Origin: Escherichia phage JM17
Length of the DNA: 64,000 bases
Sequence record: PP400779
Strand: one strand, 5' to 3'
The notes under the pieces are model-generated. The model worked only from the letters and a program-made list of their open reading frames with translations. It was not told the DNA's origin and did no database searches. Of this stretch, positions 4,980 to 30,967 are shown piece after piece. How positions within the stretch are numbered: position 1 is the stretch's first letter; each line of letters starts with the position of its first letter. The translations under genes were made by a program, and so were the position numbers.

Positions 4980-5010
4980 GCCCCCTTCCTTATGGTTGGG
5001 GCTTTTTGGT
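4980..5010 (+). terminator. rho-independent terminator, copy 2
   Basis: same 28-nt hairpin plus T-run as 4436-4466. Confidence 0.6.
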
Positions 5011-5097
5011 ATCTAGGGCATAAAAATATTTCATAAAGATGTTTACTTCTTCCCTAGATGTGTTACTATAGACCTATAAAAACATGAGGAAAATATT

Positions 5098-5403
5098 ATG
5101 AGTCTTTATACTGAACTGAATAAAAAATCTGAAGAATCTGCTGAAACTATTTTTAAAAACGTGCAAAAGCGTATTTTAGAAAAGATGTATAACACTGCAG
5201 CTAAAGGTGAAAAATCTTGCCGGTTTCCGATTAGGTGTTCTTCAGATTTATGCGCAAATACTATTGAATGGCTGGAAAGTGAAGGTCTTACGGTAGAGAA
5301 AAACCCGGCGACTTCTATTGACAGCGAATCATATATTAGTATTTCTTGGGATAAACCACGTATGAATGAAGGACACTACAAGTTGTTAAGTTGGAAAAAT
5401 TAA
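5098..5403 (+). CDS. hypothetical protein
   Basis: ORF behind a GTTTAC...TACTAT promoter and GAGGAAAA SD. Confidence 0.4.
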   Translation: MSLYTELNKKSEESAETIFKNVQKRILEKMYNTAAKGEKSCRFPIRCSSDLCANTIEWLESEGLTVEKNPATSIDSESYISISWDKPRMNEGHYKLLSWKN

Positions 5404-12033: not shown

Positions 12034-12311
12034 AAACATACAATGAATTTTTATCAGAATCTATTCTTAACGAAGCTACTGACACATTTGCAACTAAGCT
12101 AGGTGCAGCTTTGGTTGAAGCCGAAAGTCTATTAGCACGTATTTCTGAACTTGCTAGTAAGATAGATACTCGCAAATTTGAACGTACCAGCGATATCGCT
12201 AAGCTTGAAGCCTTGTTACGTATGTGCGATAAACCGGAAGAAATCGCTAAGAACGGCTCGCTGATGAAACAACGTCTTGAAAAATATATTTCAGGCGCTT
12301 CAGAAAAATAG
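12030..12311 (+). CDS. internal protein-like (leader [10 protein letters not shown])
   Basis: CTS-like N-terminus; ATGA overlap with the e stop codon. Confidence 0.5.
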
Positions 12312-12313
12312 TT

Positions 12314-12370
12314 GTTTACTTCCTCCAAGGGTTTTGATACTATACATTCATCAACTACTTGGAGGAAATT
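12314..12370 (+). promoter_or_regulatory. PeSL-like promoter: GTTTAC, TACTAT, arms TTCCTCCAAG / CTTGGAGGAA (anti-SD / SD)
   Basis: left arm lies in the promoter spacer; right arm carries the SD before ATG 12371. Confidence 0.5.
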
Positions 12371-12480
12371 ATGACCCGTCCGAAGCGTCCATTGCGATAA
12401 ATCAAGCACGCTTAGATGAAAAAATTGCTCAACGTCCGACTTGGTACAAATACTTTGGTAAATCAATTTACTAAGGAAAA

Positions 12481-12741
12481 ATGAAAATGTATCAAGAATT
12501 TATCGTTGAAGCAGATGCCAAAGGTCCTAAATTTAAAGTTAAAGCTTTCATTGGTGATGCGGAAGACTTTGGCTCATTAAAACGTAATGGGTATTCTTTC
12601 TTAGGTGGCAATGGTAAAGAAATCAACACCTATGCAAAACGTAGTGAAATTGCTTATGTTGTAGCAAGTCCTAAAGTAGATGTTGACGATATTGGATACG
12701 ATTTTAACAACTTCGGAATTATTTCTGGCGGTAAAGCTTAA
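12481..12741 (+). CDS. internal protein-like (leader MKMYQEFIVE)
   Basis: CTS-like N-terminus; AAGGAAAA SD. Confidence 0.5.
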   Translation: MKMYQEFIVEADAKGPKFKVKAFIGDAEDFGSLKRNGYSFLGGNGKEINTYAKRSEIAYVVASPKVDVDDIGYDFNNFGIISGGKA

Positions 12742-12806
12742 ATTGTTTACGCTTAAGTATTAATATGGTATATAATTACTCTATCAAAACAAACAAGGAA
12801 ACAAAA

Positions 12807-13109
12807 ATGAAAACATATCAAGAATTTATTACTGAAGCGCGAGTGAGTGCAGGTAAATTAGAAGCCGCTATAAATAAAAAGGCCCATTCATTTCATGATT
12901 TGTCCGATAAAGACCGTAAGAAACTTGTAAGCCTTTATATTGACAAAGAGCGTATTCTCGCTCTTCCTGGCGCTAATGAAGGTAAACAGGCCAAGCCTTT
13001 GAATGCTGTCGAAAAGAAAATTGATAACTTTGCTTCTAAATTCGGTATGTCTATGGATGACCTTCAGCAAGCGGCTATCGAAGCAGCTAAAGTAATTAAA
13101 GGTAAATAA
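12807..13109 (+). CDS. internal protein-like (leader MKTYQEFITE)
   Basis: CTS-like N-terminus; GTTTAC...TATAAT promoter and AAGGAAAC SD upstream. Confidence 0.55.
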   Translation: MKTYQEFITEARVSAGKLEAAINKKAHSFHDLSDKDRKKLVSLYIDKERILALPGANEGKQAKPLNAVEKKIDNFASKFGMSMDDLQQAAIEAAKVIKGK

Positions 13110-13220
13110 CAGTTTACTTCTCCTAGAATTGTGATAGTATATTCATAATTCTAGGAGGGGTAAATACAGAAATGGACAATTCATGTGCCACGGAATGGCC
13201 CAACATAAAAGAGAAACTAA

Positions 13221-13760
13221 ATGAGAACATTTTTAACTGGACCTTATCTATCCCTGATGAATGCTTTTACACACCATTCTGATGCTAGAGTAGAAGAAAT
13301 TTGTAAGAACGGTTACGTCCCACCATTTGAAGACGTACTCAAGCAGTACTGTACACTTCGTTTAGACGGCGGCAGACAATCAGGTAAATCGACCGCAGTA
13401 ACTAATTTTGCTGTTAATTGGCTGTATGATGGTGGAACAGTTATTGTTCTTTCTAATACTTCAGCTTATGCTAAAATTTCTGCTGGCAACATTAAAAAAG
13501 AATTTTCTCGTTATTCTAGCGATGATATTCGATTCCGTTTATTTACTGATTCTGTTCGTAGTTTTATTGGCAATGAAGGTTCTAAATTCCGTGGATTAAC
13601 GCTTTCTCGTATTCTGTACATAATTGACGAGCCTATTAAAGCTCCTGATATGGATAAGATTTACAATGTCCATATTAAAACAGTCCAACACTGTTGCAAA
13701 AGCAAATATTGCATCGGCGGTATTGCTCGTCCTCAATTTTTTGTGATTGGAATGCAATGA
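13221..13760 (+). CDS. P-loop NTPase, function unknown
   Basis: Walker A GGRQSGKST, Walker B-like ILYIIDEP; start uncertain because a 36-aa ORF (13172-13282) with a strong SD overlaps. Confidence 0.4.
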   Translation: MRTFLTGPYLSLMNAFTHHSDARVEEICKNGYVPPFEDVLKQYCTLRLDGGRQSGKSTAVTNFAVNWLYDGGTVIVLSNTSAYAKISAGNIKKEFSRYSSDDIRFRLFTDSVRSFIGNEGSKFRGLTLSRILYIIDEPIKAPDMDKIYNVHIKTVQHCCKSKYCIGGIARPQFFVIGMQ

Positions 13761-14065
13761 TGACCACTATTGAAGTTTTTGAGTATTGTTATAACAGCCC
13801 AGTATGCAATAAAAGGGCTCTTGTAGAAAATTATGAGATTTACCATTTTAAACCTAAACGATATCGTTTGACTAAAGGACCGTTCGCAGGGCAGCAGGTT
13901 CTTTGTACTGCTCCTAATGCACGGTTGATGACTAGTATTCCGCATTTCAAAATGGAATTTATTGATGGGCCATTTAAGGGATTAATCACTCAAAGTTTAA
14001 TGGCGTTTAATTCCGACCCATTTTTGATTAAAGAAAAAACTTGGATAAATTTATTTTCTAATTGA
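13757..14065 (+). CDS. hypothetical protein
   Basis: ATGA overlap with upstream ORF. Confidence 0.4.
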   Translation: MMTTIEVFEYCYNSPVCNKRALVENYEIYHFKPKRYRLTKGPFAGQQVLCTAPNARLMTSIPHFKMEFIDGPFKGLITQSLMAFNSDPFLIKEKTWINLFSN

Positions 14066-14071
14066 GGTTAT

Positions 14072-14434
14072 ATGAAAGCATATCAAATTCTTGAAGGTGC
14101 ACATAAAGGCACTATTTATTTTGAAGACGGTACTCAAGCCCGGATTATTGTCTCTAAGACTTTTAAAGAAGACTCTATTGTAGACCCGGAAATTTTCTAC
14201 GGTTTGAAGGCCCGTGAAATTGAAATTGAACATCAACCTAAAGTTAAAATTGAAGGTGGTCAACATCTGAACGTTAACGTTCTGCGTCGTGAAACTCTGG
14301 AAGATGCAGTTAAGCATCCGGAAAAATATCCGCAGCTGACCATCCGTGTATCTGGTTATGCAGTTCGCTTTAACTCTCTGACTCCGGAACAGCAGCGCGA
14401 CGTTATCGCTCGTACCTTTACTGAGAGTCTATAA
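14072..14434 (+). CDS. glycyl-radical cofactor protein (GrcA/YfiD-like C-terminal module) with phage-specific N-terminus
   Basis: C-terminal ~60 aa ([63 protein letters not shown]) match E. coli GrcA as recalled, glycyl radical motif RVSGY; codon usage in this segment is host-like. Confidence 0.7.
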
Positions 14435-14658
14435 TGGCTAAATTGATTATAGAAGGGTCTGAAGATGTTTTAAAATGTTTTGCCGCCTGGTTTAGTTGCT
14501 CAGGCGAGCAATCATTCACTGAAACATTTAGAATGGGTGATATTACTGGAAACTATCCGACAACTGATATCACTGTACGTGGATATGGTATTAATGAGCC
14601 TATCCAATTGGTCGAATATGACCTTGCCACTGATGAGGAAATTCCTTATGTCGATTGA
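14434..14658 (+). CDS. hypothetical protein
   Basis: TAATG overlap with upstream ORF. Confidence 0.4.
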   Translation: MAKLIIEGSEDVLKCFAAWFSCSGEQSFTETFRMGDITGNYPTTDITVRGYGINEPIQLVEYDLATDEEIPYVD

Positions 14659-14914
14659 AGACATCAAAGGCCACAAGCCGCATACCAATGATAAAATTGG
14701 TAAAGTGAACGCTATTAAAGATGCTGAAGTCCGTCTTGGATTGTTGTTTGATGCTCTGATTGAAGAAGCATATATCTTGAAAGAAAATGAAACAGAGCAA
14801 CAAACCAAAGAAGATATGGATGCAGTGCAGGCTCTTAAGTACGCTAAGCAACATCTAAAAGAAGCCAGCATGTGGGCATGTCGTGCAGTATTTCGACCTG
14901 AGGAAAAATACTAA
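14648..14914 (+). CDS. small all-alpha protein, possibly MazG/HisE-like NTP pyrophosphohydrolase
   Basis: 88 aa; acidic pattern LIEEAYIL...E..E; assignment tentative. Confidence 0.3.
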   Translation: MSIEDIKGHKPHTNDKIGKVNAIKDAEVRLGLLFDALIEEAYILKENETEQQTKEDMDAVQALKYAKQHLKEASMWACRAVFRPEEKY

Positions 14915-15129
14915 TGGCTTCTACTATTACTGGGTTATTGGACTTCCAAGAAAAGGTCAACAAAATTTGTAGTGAATACTTAAAGTATCTTGAAGAAGAC
15001 CTTGAAGATTGTAAGGAAGAAGGCGAAGAAGACTATGCTGATCAGCGTCGACGCCAAATCGAAGAGATGAGGCGTTTCGCCAATATAGTATCTAAAGAAT
15101 CTTGGGCTTTAACTCCATTTTATCAATAA
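14914..15129 (+). CDS. hypothetical acidic protein
   Basis: start overlaps upstream stop (TAATG). Confidence 0.4.
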   Translation: MASTITGLLDFQEKVNKICSEYLKYLEEDLEDCKEEGEEDYADQRRRQIEEMRRFANIVSKESWALTPFYQ

Positions 15130-15134
15130 AGTAG

Positions 15135-15190
15135 TTTACTTCTCCTCTAGTTGTGTTACTATAGACCTGTCAACTAGAGGAGAAATCAAA
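15135..15190 (+). promoter_or_regulatory. PeSL-like promoter: GTTTAC, TACTAT, 12-bp arms CTCCTCTAGTTG / CAACTAGAGGAG
   Basis: -35 at 15135-15140, -10 at 15157-15162; right arm contains the SD for ATG 15191. Confidence 0.5.
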
Positions 15191-15649
15191 ATGACTATCA
15201 ATTCAGACGTTTTTATCCGCCGTAATAAACTCCGTCGAATCTTTGAAACGGAGTTCCGCAAAATAAATGCCGGTATAAAAGATGCTGCAAAGTCTCTTGG
15301 ACTACCAGGCTTTCATATCAAGTATTCTCAACATCTCTTAGATCGTGCCATCCAGAGAGAAATAGATGAGAATTACGTTTTTGAATTATTTCATAAAGTA
15401 AAAAATCATGTTAAAGAAGTTGCAGAATTTTTATCAATGCCGGCACGTCCAGATGTTGATGAAGATTTTGTCGAAGGTGTCGAATATCGCCCAGGCCGTT
15501 TAGAAATAACTGATGGAAATCTTTGGTTAGGACTTACAGTTTGTCGCGAAAATCCAGCATTCAAAATGAAGACTCTTCAATGCAGAATGGCTATTATTAA
15601 CAGTAAACGACTACCAGGAAAAGCTTCTAAAGCAGTGATTAAAATCTAG
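15191..15649 (+). CDS. hypothetical protein
   Basis: 152 aa; no motif recognised. Confidence 0.45.
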   Translation: MTINSDVFIRRNKLRRIFETEFRKINAGIKDAAKSLGLPGFHIKYSQHLLDRAIQREIDENYVFELFHKVKNHVKEVAEFLSMPARPDVDEDFVEGVEYRPGRLEITDGNLWLGLTVCRENPAFKMKTLQCRMAIINSKRLPGKASKAVIKI

Positions 15650-15657
15650 AGGTAAAC

Positions 15658-16200
15658 ATGAGAAAAGCACTACTCGCTGGTCTATTTGCTCTTTCGTTAT
15701 CAGCATATAGCTCCGAGCATACTTTTAGTAATGTCCAACTCGATAACTTGAATTATGCTTATCAGTTCGGGGAACAGTTTTCTAAGGACGGAAAATTTAA
15801 AACGCATGAAAATATGCATAAGAAAGGACTTGGATACATAATGGCCGCAATACTATGGCAAGAATCATCTGCCGGTATTAATCTTAAAGATAAGAAAGGT
15901 CACCATGCGTATGGAATGTTCCAAAACTATCTACCAACAATGAGGGCAAGAATTAACCAGCTTGGTTATAATATGACTGATGCCCAAATTAAGAAAATGC
16001 TATCTAAGCGGTCTAATTCAGCCAGATGGGCTTATATCGAATTTTCTTATTGGTTAAATATACATAACGGGGATATAAGGAAAGCTATATCCTCATATAA
16101 TGCGGGATGGAAGACAAGTGCTGGAAGTAAATATGCTTCTGAAGTCCTAGAAAAGGCTAATTACCTTAAATCAAATAAACTACTGGAAATAAAAGAATGA
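15658..16200 (+). CDS. secreted lytic transglycosylase-like (SLT domain) protein
   Basis: signal peptide MRKALLAGLFALSLSAYS; SLT-like motifs ILWQESS, YGMFQ, SSYNAGW. Confidence 0.5.
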   Translation: MRKALLAGLFALSLSAYSSEHTFSNVQLDNLNYAYQFGEQFSKDGKFKTHENMHKKGLGYIMAAILWQESSAGINLKDKKGHHAYGMFQNYLPTMRARINQLGYNMTDAQIKKMLSKRSNSARWAYIEFSYWLNIHNGDIRKAISSYNAGWKTSAGSKYASEVLEKANYLKSNKLLEIKE

Positions 16201-27400: not shown

Positions 27401-27874
27401 ATGTTATTATCAGGCGCAAAATATAAAGAAGAAAAACAAAAATTTTATGATGCACAGAATGGTAAGTGTCCTATTTGCCACCGTGAATTAGACCCTGATG
27501 TTCAAGGTAACCATCTTGACCACGACCACGAATTAAACGGGCCAAAAGCAGGTAGAGTTCGTGGGTTACTCTGTAATCTGTGCAACGCAGCAGAAGGTCA
27601 AATGAAGCATAAGTTCAACCGTTCCGGTCTTAAAGGACGTGATGTCGACTACCTCGAATGGCTTGAAGCTCTTCTTGTTTATTTGAAACAAGATTATTCT
27701 GATAATAATATCCATCCTAATTTTGTTCCAGACAAAACTAAAGAGTTCTCAAGACTAGGTAAAGAGGAAATGATGGCTGAGATGCTTCAAAGAGGATTTG
27801 AATATAATGAATCTGACACCAAAACACAGTTAATAACTTCATTTAAGAAGCAGCTTAGAAAGAGTTTAAAATGA
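27401..27874 (+). CDS. 49: endonuclease VII (Holliday junction resolvase, gp49)
   Basis: 157 aa; CPICHREL...HLDHDHE...CNLCN zinc/HNH-like motifs. Confidence 0.9.
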   Translation: MLLSGAKYKEEKQKFYDAQNGKCPICHRELDPDVQGNHLDHDHELNGPKAGRVRGLLCNLCNAAEGQMKHKFNRSGLKGRDVDYLEWLEALLVYLKQDYSDNNIHPNFVPDKTKEFSRLGKEEMMAEMLQRGFEYNESDTKTQLITSFKKQLRKSLK

Positions 27875-28692
27875 ATGTAGTATATAAACTATCATTTATT
27901 AGTAGAATTAATGCTAAAACCCCGCCATATTATTATATTGGAAGTAAAACCAATTGCACTTTTGACGGAACGAATATTATTGATAAAAATGGTAAATTTT
28001 ATTATTCGTCTTCGTCATCTTCCGAATTTCAAAAAGCTCTGTTGAAAGAAACACCGAAAGTTGAAATATTATATTTTCAATTAGTCGGAGATGAACAAAT
28101 AACTAGCATTGAAGCTGAATTTCAAAAGAATATAGAAAAAGATATATGGAATAAAGAGTATTTTAATTTAGCATATGCTAATGGTCAATTTACAACGTAT
28201 GGTGTTTCTCCTTCTAAAGAAACTAGAGAAAAGCAATCAATAACCATGATTAAAAGAAATCGTAATAAAGGTAAAAATCATGGATTTTATGGAAAGCATC
28301 ATACTAATTTAGCCAGAAAGAAAATATCAGAAGCTTCTAAAAAATACTGGAAAGAAAATCCACATCATGGATTTTCGCACACAAAGGAAGCTAAAATTAA
28401 AATTGGAATTTCATCTTCTATCAGGCATAAAGGAAGTGGAAATCCGATGTACGGCGTAAAACCTTGGAAAACTCCTAGAGCAATTAAATCTGGTACTTAT
28501 ATATTATGGTTAAAATACGCAGAAATTTTATATGATTATTTAGGTCCGGATTTTAAAAGTAAATCATCTATTTTTGCGGAGTTAAATTTACCGAAATTTA
28601 GAATTGATAATTTCATCAAAAGGTTTAAAATGGGTTGGAACCCATATTTAGACGAAGAATTTCAAAAGGATAAATTAGAATTATGTCTTTAG
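27871..28692 (+). mobile_element. free-standing GIY-YIG-type homing endonuclease gene
   Basis: VYKLSFI...YYYIGSKTN catalytic motif; NUMOD3-like repeats GKNHGFYGKHH and GSGNPMYGVKPW; AT-rich. Confidence 0.55.
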
Positions 28693-30500
28693 AGAAAGAT
28701 GTTTTAAATTTTATTTCAAATAAAGATAAAGAATTAAATACCGAAAATGCCAACAAAGATTCTCGTGTCTTTCCAACAAAAAGAGATTTAATGGCCGGTA
28801 TTGTTTCTAAACATATCGCTTGTAGTATTCTTCCGAGCCATATTGTAAATGCTCATAATGTCGGATTAATTCATTTTCACGATTTAGATTACAGTATATC
28901 ATTGCCTTTTACTAATTGCTGTTTAGTAGATTTAAAAGGAATGCTTGAGAACGGATTTAAGCTTGGTAATGCACAGATTGAAACTCCTAAATCAATTGGC
29001 GTTGCTACTGCAATTATGGCACAAATTACTGCACAGGTTGCTTCTCACCAATATGGCGGAACGACTTTTGCTAATGTAGATAAAGTACTTTCTCCTTATG
29101 TTAAACGCACCTATGCAAAACATATTGAGGATGCAGAAAAATGGCAAATCGCCGATGCGTTGAATTATGCTCAATCCAAAACAGAAAAAGATGTCTATGA
29201 CGCATTTCAAGCTTATGAGTATGAAGTAAATACTCTTTTTAGCTCAAACGGTCAAACTCCTTTTGTTACTATAACATTTGGAACAGGAACTGACTGGACT
29301 GAACGAATGATTCAGAAAGCAATTCTGAAAAATCGTATTAAAGGCCTTGGTCGTGATGGAATAACTCCTATTTTCCCTAAGCTTGTTATGTTCGTTGAAG
29401 AAGGCGTTAATCTTTATAAAGACGATCCGAATTACGACATTAAGCAACTTGCTTTAGAGTGCGCAAGCAAAAGGATGTATCCTGATATTATTTCAGCTAA
29501 GAATAATAAAGCTATCACTGGTTCATCTGTTCCTGTTTCTCCAATGGGTTGTCGTAGTTTCTTGAGTGCATGGAAAGATTCGACTGGTAATGAAATTCTT
29601 GATGGACGTAATAATCTTGGTGTTGTAACACTGAATCTTCCTCGTATTGCGTTAGATTCTTATATTGGAACACAGTTCAATGAACAGAAATTTGTTGAGC
29701 TATTTAACGAACGAATGGACCTGTGTTTTGAAGCTTTGATGTGTAGAATTAGTTCCTTAAAAGGAGTTAAAGCGACTGTTGCTCCTATTCTTTACCAAGA
29801 AGGTGCATTTGGGGTTCGTCTTAAACCTGATGACGACATAATTGAGTTATTTAAAAACGGTAGAAGTTCAGTGTCCCTAGGATACATTGGTATTCACGAA
29901 TTGAATATTCTTGTCGGTCGTGATATTGGGCAAGAAATTTTAACTAAAATGAATGCTCATCTTAAACAGTGGACTGAAAGAACCGGATTTGCTTTTAGTT
30001 TATATTCTACTCCTGCTGAAAACCTTTGTTATCGCTTCTGTAAACTTGATACAGAAAAATATGGAAGTGTAAAGGATGTCACTGATAAAGGCTGGTACAC
30101 TAACAGTTTCCATGTTTCAGTAGAAGAAAATATTACTCCGTTTGAAAAGATTTCTCGTGAAGCGCCATATCATTTCATTGCGACAGGTGGTCACATTTCT
30201 TATGTTGAACTTCCTGATATGAAAAATAACTTAAAAGGTCTTGAGGCCGTATGGGATTATGCTGCACAACATTTAGATTATTTTGGCGTTAATATGCCAG
30301 TAGATAAATGTTTTACATGCGGAAGTACCCATGAAATGACTCCTACTGAAAACGGATTTGTTTGTTCAGTTTGTGGAGAAAGTGATCCTAAAAAGATGAA
30401 CACCATAAGAAGAACATGCGGTTATTTGGGAAATCCGAACGAACGAGGATTTAATCTCGGTAAAAATAAAGAAATCATGCATAGGGTTAAACACCAATGA
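28683..30500 (+). CDS. nrdD: anaerobic ribonucleoside-triphosphate reductase (class III, NrdD)
   Basis: 605 aa; C-terminal glycyl radical motif RRTCGYLG; Cys-rich zinc site; uninterrupted (no intron). Confidence 0.95.
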   Translation: MSLEKDVLNFISNKDKELNTENANKDSRVFPTKRDLMAGIVSKHIACSILPSHIVNAHNVGLIHFHDLDYSISLPFTNCCLVDLKGMLENGFKLGNAQIETPKSIGVATAIMAQITAQVASHQYGGTTFANVDKVLSPYVKRTYAKHIEDAEKWQIADALNYAQSKTEKDVYDAFQAYEYEVNTLFSSNGQTPFVTITFGTGTDWTERMIQKAILKNRIKGLGRDGITPIFPKLVMFVEEGVNLYKDDPNYDIKQLALECASKRMYPDIISAKNNKAITGSSVPVSPMGCRSFLSAWKDSTGNEILDGRNNLGVVTLNLPRIALDSYIGTQFNEQKFVELFNERMDLCFEALMCRISSLKGVKATVAPILYQEGAFGVRLKPDDDIIELFKNGRSSVSLGYIGIHELNILVGRDIGQEILTKMNAHLKQWTERTGFAFSLYSTPAENLCYRFCKLDTEKYGSVKDVTDKGWYTNSFHVSVEENITPFEKISREAPYHFIATGGHISYVELPDMKNNLKGLEAVWDYAAQHLDYFGVNMPVDKCFTCGSTHEMTPTENGFVCSVCGESDPKKMNTIRRTCGYLGNPNERGFNLGKNKEIMHRVKHQ

Positions 30501-30967
30501 ATTATGATAGATTTTATCCTTGCGATTTTGTGAATGGCCCTGGTTGCAGGGTCGTTCTTTTCGTTACAGGTTGTTTGCATAAATGTGAAGGGTGTTATAA
30601 TAAATCAACATGGAATGCTAGAAATGGTATTCCATTCACTGGTGAAACACTAGAACAATTAATTGAATGCTTGAATAATGATTATATAGAAGGATTGACT
30701 ATAACCGGAGGAGACCCTCTCTATCCTGACAACCGAGATGTTATTCATTGCATTGCTCAAACAGTAAAAAATCTTTATCCCAATAAAAGCATTTGGTTGT
30801 GGACAGGATATAAGTTTGAAGATATTAAACAACTAGAAATGCTTAAATATGTTGATGTTATTATTGATGGGAAGTATGAGAAAAATCTTCCGACTAAAAA
30901 GCTGTGGCGAGGATCAGATAATCAGCGACTTTGGTCAAATACCGATGGGGTGTGGAAACATGATTAA
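30497..30967 (+). CDS. nrdG: anaerobic RNR activating enzyme (radical SAM, NrdG)
   Basis: radical-SAM cysteine cluster in GCLHKCEGCYN; ATGA-coupled to nrdD. Confidence 0.9.
   Translation: MNYDRFYPCDFVNGPGCRVVLFVTGCLHKCEGCYNKSTWNARNGIPFTGETLEQLIECLNNDYIEGLTITGGDPLYPDNRDVIHCIAQTVKNLYPNKSIWLWTGYKFEDIKQLEMLKYVDVIIDGKYEKNLPTKKLWRGSDNQRLWSNTDGVWKHD

Follow-up and report, generated by a model that had tools for sequence, protein, structure and literature searches.

The gene at positions 14072 to 14434 (+ strand) of the window, by which we mean the whole 64,000-nucleotide stretch of phage DNA analysed here, raises the question of how one half of a phage gene comes to match a host gene almost base for base, and what its product could do for the phage. 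The open reading frame called by the first-pass annotation does exist, and encodes 120 amino acids plus a stop codon. At the nucleotide level it is 98.6% identical to vs.6 of phage RB69, whose copy is named GrcA in RefSeq, and 99.2% identical to the same gene of other Mosigvirus-like phages; a megablast search with it matched 791 phage records, and its product shares 113 of 120 residues (94%) with T4 Vs.6 (NP_049730). The surrounding gene order, vs.8-vs.7-vs.6-vs.5-vs.4-regB-vs.1, matches the RB69/T4 block. The nucleotide identity to RB69 and the shared vs.8-regB synteny make the source of the window a T-even phage of the RB69 type and identify the gene as vs.6, orthologous to T4 Vs.6 (called Y06I in older papers), a predicted autonomous glycyl radical cofactor. 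The gene, which the first-pass annotation had not recognised as vs.6, and its function are already known; its product has counted as a textbook spare part since 2001, and GrcA annotation is present in RefSeq phage genomes. From the comparisons that follow we consider it highly probable that Vs.6 is a spare part for PFL, encoded by a mosaic gene in which one tract has been recurrently overwritten by host DNA.

Small genes follow one another closely around vs.6. The frame before it, vs.7, ends at 14065 with the stop codon TGA (14063-14065), which is overlapped by a Shine-Dalgarno-like GAGG (14064-14067, + strand) lying 4 nt upstream of the vs.6 ATG, and the vs.6 stop overlaps the vs.5 start in the sequence TAATG, with the ATG at 14434. 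A scan of 12300-15800 gave 7 promoter-like sites against 11.1 in shuffled sequences and no convincing terminator, so nothing in this interval rises above expectation in favour of an independent vs.6 transcription unit. Two genes downstream, the vs.4 homolog (14648-14914, + strand) matches Pfam Acb2_Tad1_hairpin (E 1.1e-16), by which it is probably an Acb2-type anti-CBASS cyclic-nucleotide sponge. On the other side, the vs.8 homolog (13221-13760, + strand) carries a Walker-A-like GGRQSGKST and a weak PHROG match to phrog_2, the ATPase part of the large terminase (1e-5), with no Pfam match. Further upstream, positions 12795-13141 match the T4 region of the internal protein gene ipII at 93.7% identity, in a neighbourhood that is 76-79% identical to T4; short pieces of 13096-13164 match several places of the T4 region in both orientations, and the RB69 counterpart of 12795-13141 is annotated as hypothetical only.

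At the protein level, the proposal of a GrcA-like glycyl-radical module was borne out. The Pfam Gly_radical profile matches residues 59-101 of Vs.6 (E 2.2e-18), reaching the end of the profile, and phmmer aligns residues 21-120 to residues 27-127 of E. coli GrcA (PDB 6OWR, E 1e-42). The near-identity to GrcA/YfiD first noticed in the C-terminal 60 or so residues is complete: residues 61-120 equal GrcA 68-127 at 60 of 60 positions, including the motif RVSG95YAV, so that the alignment to grcA proposed as a check returned strong similarity and an intact radical glycine context. The codon of the predicted radical glycine, Gly95, lies at 14354-14356 (+ strand) and corresponds by alignment to GrcA G102 and PflB G734. 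Among NCBIfam models, TIGR04365 (GrcA; InterPro IPR011140) is by far the best match, but Vs.6 scores 158.3 bits, below the equivalog cut-off of 170, with E. coli GrcA at 233.9, because its N-terminal half is divergent. We therefore class Vs.6, by sequence alone, as a GrcA homolog of a phage subfamily (PHROG 1209) and not as a strict equivalog; phrog_1209 has its function listed as unknown in PHROGs. Vs.6 has the structural features that define GrcA: it is a small, stand-alone protein, carries the radical loop, has a domain that mimics PFL and is homologous to GrcA in its N-terminal half.

This last feature runs against the earlier view that the N-terminus is unrelated to GrcA. The phmmer alignment begins at residue 21, and when profiles of the phage and host N-terminal halves were built with the identical tract removed, hhalign matched them end to end (probability 96.3%, E 1.7e-9, 61 columns, 30% identity). 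The gene is not, as had been supposed, a host C-terminus fused to a foreign N-terminus, and would instead be a full-length phage homolog with an overwritten tract. The first 60 residues of GrcA lack order and help it to bind cleaved PFL and to be activated, whereas residues 61-127 fold like PFL 693-759. Given the N-terminal divergence, the affinity or specificity of Vs.6 for PFL may differ from that of GrcA.

Which enzyme does Vs.6 serve? The first-pass annotation had left host PFL and the phage NrdD as possible clients, and the comparisons point to the first. Residues 57-120 of Vs.6 align with PFL 696-759 (1H16/1CM5; phmmer E 2.6e-26), with 49 of 64 residues identical (77%). According to Andorfer et al. 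2021 (PMC8683613), which cites work by Knappe and co-workers (Wagner et al. 2001, pmid 11444864), YfiD and T4 Y06I are spare parts of about 14 kDa: the PFL-activating enzyme puts a glycyl radical on YfiD or Y06I, and PFL cleaved by oxygen at Gly734 is reactivated. The Y06I biochemistry described there was done in vitro on the T4 ortholog, not on an RB69-type protein. It has also been described that the radical passes from GrcA G102 to PflB C419 (PMC12338860).

We hypothesise that the same takes place during infection. Once oxygen had cleaved host PflB at its radical glycine, Vs.6 would bind the damaged enzyme and supply its own C-terminal domain, which is identical to that of host GrcA, in place of the lost PFL C-terminus. 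Host PflA would then install the radical on Gly95 of Vs.6, from where it would move to Cys419 of PflB and restore the reaction that turns pyruvate into acetyl-CoA plus formate, which could keep fermentative ATP and formate flowing in micro-aerobic or anaerobic infection. In class III ribonucleotide reductases like those of T4 and E. coli, both reducing equivalents come from formate (PMC4493059), so that formate from repaired PFL could in turn be the reductant for the class III NrdD of the phage. Such a chain from PFL repair through formate to NrdD would be a reason for phages of facultative anaerobes to keep vs.6.

A more direct connection to NrdD could also be considered, in which Vs.6 would replace the damaged part of the oxygen-sensitive phage NrdD, or would receive its radical from NrdG and then act on NrdD, instead of acting on host PFL. 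The phage does encode the pair, as first annotated and here confirmed by Pfam: nrdD (28683-30500, + strand), a formate-dependent class III ribonucleotide reductase (Pfam NRDD, 5e-171), and nrdG (30497-30967, + strand), the activase of NrdD (Fer4_12, 6.8e-48, and Radical_SAM). Moreover, vs.6 comes directly after nrdG in the phages Aeh1 and phiAS5, with a 4-nt overlap between the two genes in Aeromonas phage Aeh1, where the order is nrdD-nrdG-vs.6-nrdC-nrdH, and the Gly_radical domain led Nolan et al. 2006 to guess that the protein takes part in nucleotide metabolism. This synteny with nrdG is, however, equally explained by a supply of formate to NrdD (PMC4493059). A spare part must duplicate the C-terminus that is lost, and the one that Vs.6 duplicates is that of PFL: BLASTP of Vs.6 against the window's NrdD found no detectable similarity (best E 5.7, away from the radical loop), and the radical loop of NrdD, RRTCGYLG, follows a Cys-rich zinc-finger motif that Vs.6 lacks. 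The T4 ortholog is, in addition, reported to act on PFL with PFL-AE (PMC8683613). We consider a direct role on NrdD very unlikely, and as a spare part for that enzyme Vs.6 was rejected for want of similarity to the C-terminus of the window's NrdD. The start of nrdD (28683) is overlapped by 10 nt by an open reading frame of 273 aa (27871-28692, + strand) with a NUMOD3 module, a homing-endonuclease-like DNA-binding module.

It is also conceivable that Vs.6 acts on the PFL system in the opposite sense, as a decoy that titrates PflA or blocks PflB or GrcA and so shuts down host fermentation; inhibitors that imitate host proteins are common in phages, the N-terminal half of Vs.6 is strongly unlike GrcA, and the equivalog cut-off is missed. 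For such a protein, loss of the glycine or divergence would be expected, whereas the radical glycine and the sequence of the whole catalytic domain are intact and identical to the host's. Together with the reconstitution of PFL activity reported for the T4 ortholog (PMC8683613), this makes a decoy highly improbable, and repair of host PFL is the function that we retain for Vs.6.

The DNA that encodes the structured glycyl-radical domain is where the gene departs from its phage background. Codons 61-117 (14252-14422, + strand) are identical to E. coli grcA at 169 of 171 bases (98.8%), the two differences both being synonymous. In the 5' half, codons 1-60 (14072-14251, + strand), with AT-rich phage codons encoding a diverged homolog of the disordered half of GrcA, only 106 of 176 aligned bases are identical (60%) and the differences are mostly non-synonymous (Fisher p = 5e-22 for the contrast). 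The 13 codons immediately upstream of the tract are at 64% identity to E. coli grcA. At the other end, the last three codons and stop, GAG AGT CTA TAA (14423-14434, + strand), use phage-type synonymous codons, with 3 of 9 bases differing from the E. coli GAA AGC CTG, all synonymously; these three codons sit where vs.6 overlaps the ribosome-binding site and start of vs.5, and no homology to E. coli was found past the vs.6 stop codon. When the 64-kb window was compared by megablast with the complete genomes of 5,426 E. coli strains, only the tract gave matches: a 25-kb query and a 171-nt query returned the same 10,839 E. coli places, the other 39 kb none. The tract is present in all 5,426 genomes, the best of them at 169 of 171 bases, and since no allele among them is identical to that of the window, the two differences appear private to the phage.

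Composition tells the same two parts of the gene apart. The last 183 nt have a GC content of 47.5%, the mean of the window being 36.8% (z = 2.7, within the highest 0.4% of segments of that size), and codons that are rare in the window's other long open reading frames are used throughout the tract: CTG for 5 of 5 leucines (12% elsewhere), CCG for 3 of 3 prolines (18%) and ATC for 2 of 2 isoleucines (26%). The GC-richness and the host-like CTG and CCG codons noted at first sight were thus confirmed, but CGT, named along with them, is not diagnostic of host origin, being the phage's own preferred arginine codon (56%). A host origin likewise holds, at the DNA level, only for codons 61-117, the remainder of vs.6 appearing as an old phage grcA homolog.

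In which direction did the DNA move? That the 3' ends of host grcA genes derive from phages would be suggested by the shared sequence itself and by nothing else. The tract has the GC content and codon usage of the host, and it is present in every one of the E. coli genomes searched. Furthermore, the two halves of host grcA diverge in parallel with species relationships: dS for the 5' and 3' halves is 0.56 and 0.60 between E. coli and Klebsiella, and 0.067 and 0.048 between E. coli and Escherichia sp. On codon usage, GC and this parallel divergence, a phage-to-host transfer was rejected and seems to us extremely unlikely; as read from the same evidence, the direction of transfer is from host to phage.

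Nor does conservation of the protein account for the tract. A single ancient acquisition of grcA, whose C-terminal identity has since been kept by purifying selection on the protein alone, would agree with the strong protein-level conservation of the glycyl-radical domain in all hosts and phages, but such selection leaves synonymous sites unprotected. Hosts with near-identical tract proteins have diverged at these sites from E. coli to a dS of 0.38 (Citrobacter), 0.60 (Klebsiella) and 1.13 (Salmonella), with nucleotide identities of about 92%, 87% and about 83% over the same tract, whereas phage and E. coli differ by 0-0.048, the window's own tract by 0.048. Other phage genera, with proteins equally conserved, have saturated dS to hosts, and neither the host-type codon usage of the tract nor the Klebsiella synonymous variants carried by Klebsiella phages would be expected. 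Purifying selection alone is effectively refuted by synonymous-site divergence, and we assign it next to no probability.

The comparison with T4 dates the exchange. Over the region the window is 76-79% identical to T4, but identity rises to a plateau of 97-100% at 14245-14424; within vs.6, the 5' half is 89% identical with a dS of 0.39, against 0.048 in the tract. The plateau and the low dS place the tract after the T4/RB69 split, and on synonymous divergence it is much younger than both that split and the rest of vs.6. Against RB69 itself (5001-5363), the window differs by 1 base in the 5' 180 nt and by 4 in the tract, numbers too small to interpret. The sequence of events that we propose is that vs.6 was an old full-length phage homolog of grcA whose 3' tract, codons 61-117, was later, and recently, overwritten by E. 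coli grcA DNA.

Homologs from 14 phages, compared with the grcA genes of over 80 genomes of Enterobacterales and Pasteurellaceae, indicate that this was not confined to one lineage or one host. In all T4-type and RB69-type phages examined, codons 61-117 are those of E. coli grcA with 0-3 private differences. In the Klebsiella phage pKp20 (Jiaodavirus), codons 1-60 are of the phage type, with 72-74% nucleotide identity to T4 and the window, and codons 61-114 differ by 3 bases from a Klebsiella grcA; the tract of this phage is 96.5% identical to Klebsiella against 86.5% to E. coli (dS 0.12 against 0.70). The 5' junction, at codon 60/61, is the same in Tequatro-, Mosig- and Jiaodavirus. Across phage records, the E. 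coli tract is found 642 times at 95% identity or more, mostly in Escherichia/Shigella phages, and 107 times at 80-90%, the sampled ones being Klebsiella phages. The Klebsiella tract is found 110 times at 95% or more, all sampled ones being Klebsiella phages, and 520 times at 80-90%, the sampled ones mostly E. coli phages, with few records intermediate between the two types. Between E. coli and Klebsiella phages the tract dS is 0.70, equalling the 0.60 of their hosts, and that of the phage 5' halves is about 1.5.

The Klebsiella tract in Klebsiella phages points to recurrent host-to-phage gene conversion, which would be bounded where phage-host homology ends. T-even phages are able to recombine inside the cell with homologous cytosine-containing DNA, as in plasmid marker rescue and with insertion/substitution vectors. 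On balance, we lean with some reserve towards the view that the glycyl-radical domain of Vs.6 evolves in concert with host grcA, the same tract of about 171 nt being repeatedly overwritten by homologous recombination with the host chromosome during infection.

The same data can, however, be read with fewer host steps. A single chimera could have arisen in a Tevenvirinae ancestor, with host-matched tracts then spreading by recombination from phage to phage and the host step being a rare event that happened once or twice. Recombination among T-even phages is free, and the junction shared at codon 60/61 would also fit a lone ancestral chimera with a few exchanges after it. The junctions should also coincide if a heteroduplex extends only as far as homology lasts, a fit with the 64% identity upstream of the tract and the absence of homology past the stop codon. 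At least two host sources are required by the E. coli and Klebsiella tract types, and a tract younger than the T4/RB69 split (dS 0.048 against 0.39) does not agree with a chimera ancestral to both. RB69 is, moreover, reported to be unable to recombine with T4 (PMC6024577), by which separate host-capture events in Mosigvirus and Tequatrovirus are probable. We regard the single ancestral chimera as rather unlikely.

Some observations do argue for few host steps. Among phage records, no match at 90% or more was found to the Salmonella grcA tract, and a Tequatrovirus isolated on Salmonella has a tract with 0 differences from E. coli grcA. IsaacDaniel (321-683), a Tequatrovirus isolated on Hafnia, has a tract with 99.4% identity to E. 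coli grcA and 88% to that of Hafnia. Whether their isolation host was Hafnia, Yersinia or Salmonella, the T4-type phages have E. coli-type tracts at 98-100%, so the tract would report the usual host of a lineage and not the host of isolation. In Karam-, Slopek-, Pseudoteven- and Krischvirus, T5-like and Aeromonas phages, the tract diverges to an ordinary degree from every one of the more than 80 sampled host genes, identity to any sampled host being 72-86% in Karam-, Slopek-, Krisch- and Pseudotevenvirus and the T5-like phages. The missing Salmonella type, the E. coli tract of the Hafnia isolate, the ordinary divergence in other genera and the lack of an exact E. coli allele together suggest that conversion is infrequent when set against the pace of host switching. 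A few historical events followed by phage-phage spread, in place of ongoing conversion, is accordingly a doubtful alternative that we keep beside the recurrent conversion that we prefer. In a separate comparison, of the vs.6 genes (601-963) of two related phages, Klebsiella phage 05F and Citrobacter phage Miller, nucleotide identity was 83% for the 5' half and 77% for the 3' tract; at the protein level it is the tract that is better conserved, and the reversed nucleotide pattern could reflect older, independent tract replacements.

That phage GrcA resembles that of the host was already known; by the searchable literature, beyond whose reach some key older papers lie, no prior description of the vs.6/grcA mosaic or of its host matching was found, and the host-matched 171-nt tract appears to be the new part. 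If our reading is correct, it would be a natural and ongoing case of gene conversion from host to virulent phage in the best-studied phage family, and could show that strictly lytic phages, which have modified DNA and degrade the host chromosome, still gain host sequence by homologous recombination. The tract could also mark the recent principal host of a T-even lineage. Vs.6 would be split into a catalytic domain locked to that of the host and a phage-specific N-terminal half free to evolve, and since recognition of damaged PFL has been ascribed to the N-terminal half, any tuning specific to the phage should be sought there.

The closest known system is the T4 Vs.6/Y06I, which has the same position in the gene block, the same length and the same mosaic with an E. 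coli tract. Seven substitutions separate it from the window's protein, all but one falling in the N-terminal half, and the divergence of the 5' halves (89% nucleotide identity, dS 0.39) is as expected for a Mosigvirus-Tequatrovirus pair. E. coli GrcA/YfiD is likewise a small stand-alone glycyl-radical protein with a homologous N-terminal half, but Vs.6 is seven residues shorter and only about 30% identical in that half, and vs.6 lies in an operon-like block of small genes of a lytic phage, whereas E. coli grcA adjoins ung. Full-length GrcA homologs with the same MKAYQ... N-terminal signature and a common loop are found in T5-like Demerecviridae (L010 and L011, 601-969), next to tRNA genes, and in Aeromonas T4-like phages such as Aeh1 (L012, 1501-1878), directly after nrdG; their tracts are 60-78% identical in nucleotides to any sampled host grcA, with no recent host patch. 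The phage grcA homolog thus appears to be an old full-length gene found across Straboviridae and T5-like phages. Outside this family, the nearest likeness is with the cyanophage genes psbA and psbD, host-like metabolic genes with intragenic recombination between host and phage (Sullivan et al. 2006, PMC1484495). There, too, the phage copy of a damage-prone host component exchanges segments with the host's own, and mosaics result. The vs.6 case differs in concerning fermentation and radical repair in enteric T-even phages and not photosystem II, and in that what is exchanged is one fixed tract of 171 nt, which matches the extent of a structured domain and is nearly identical to that of the host.
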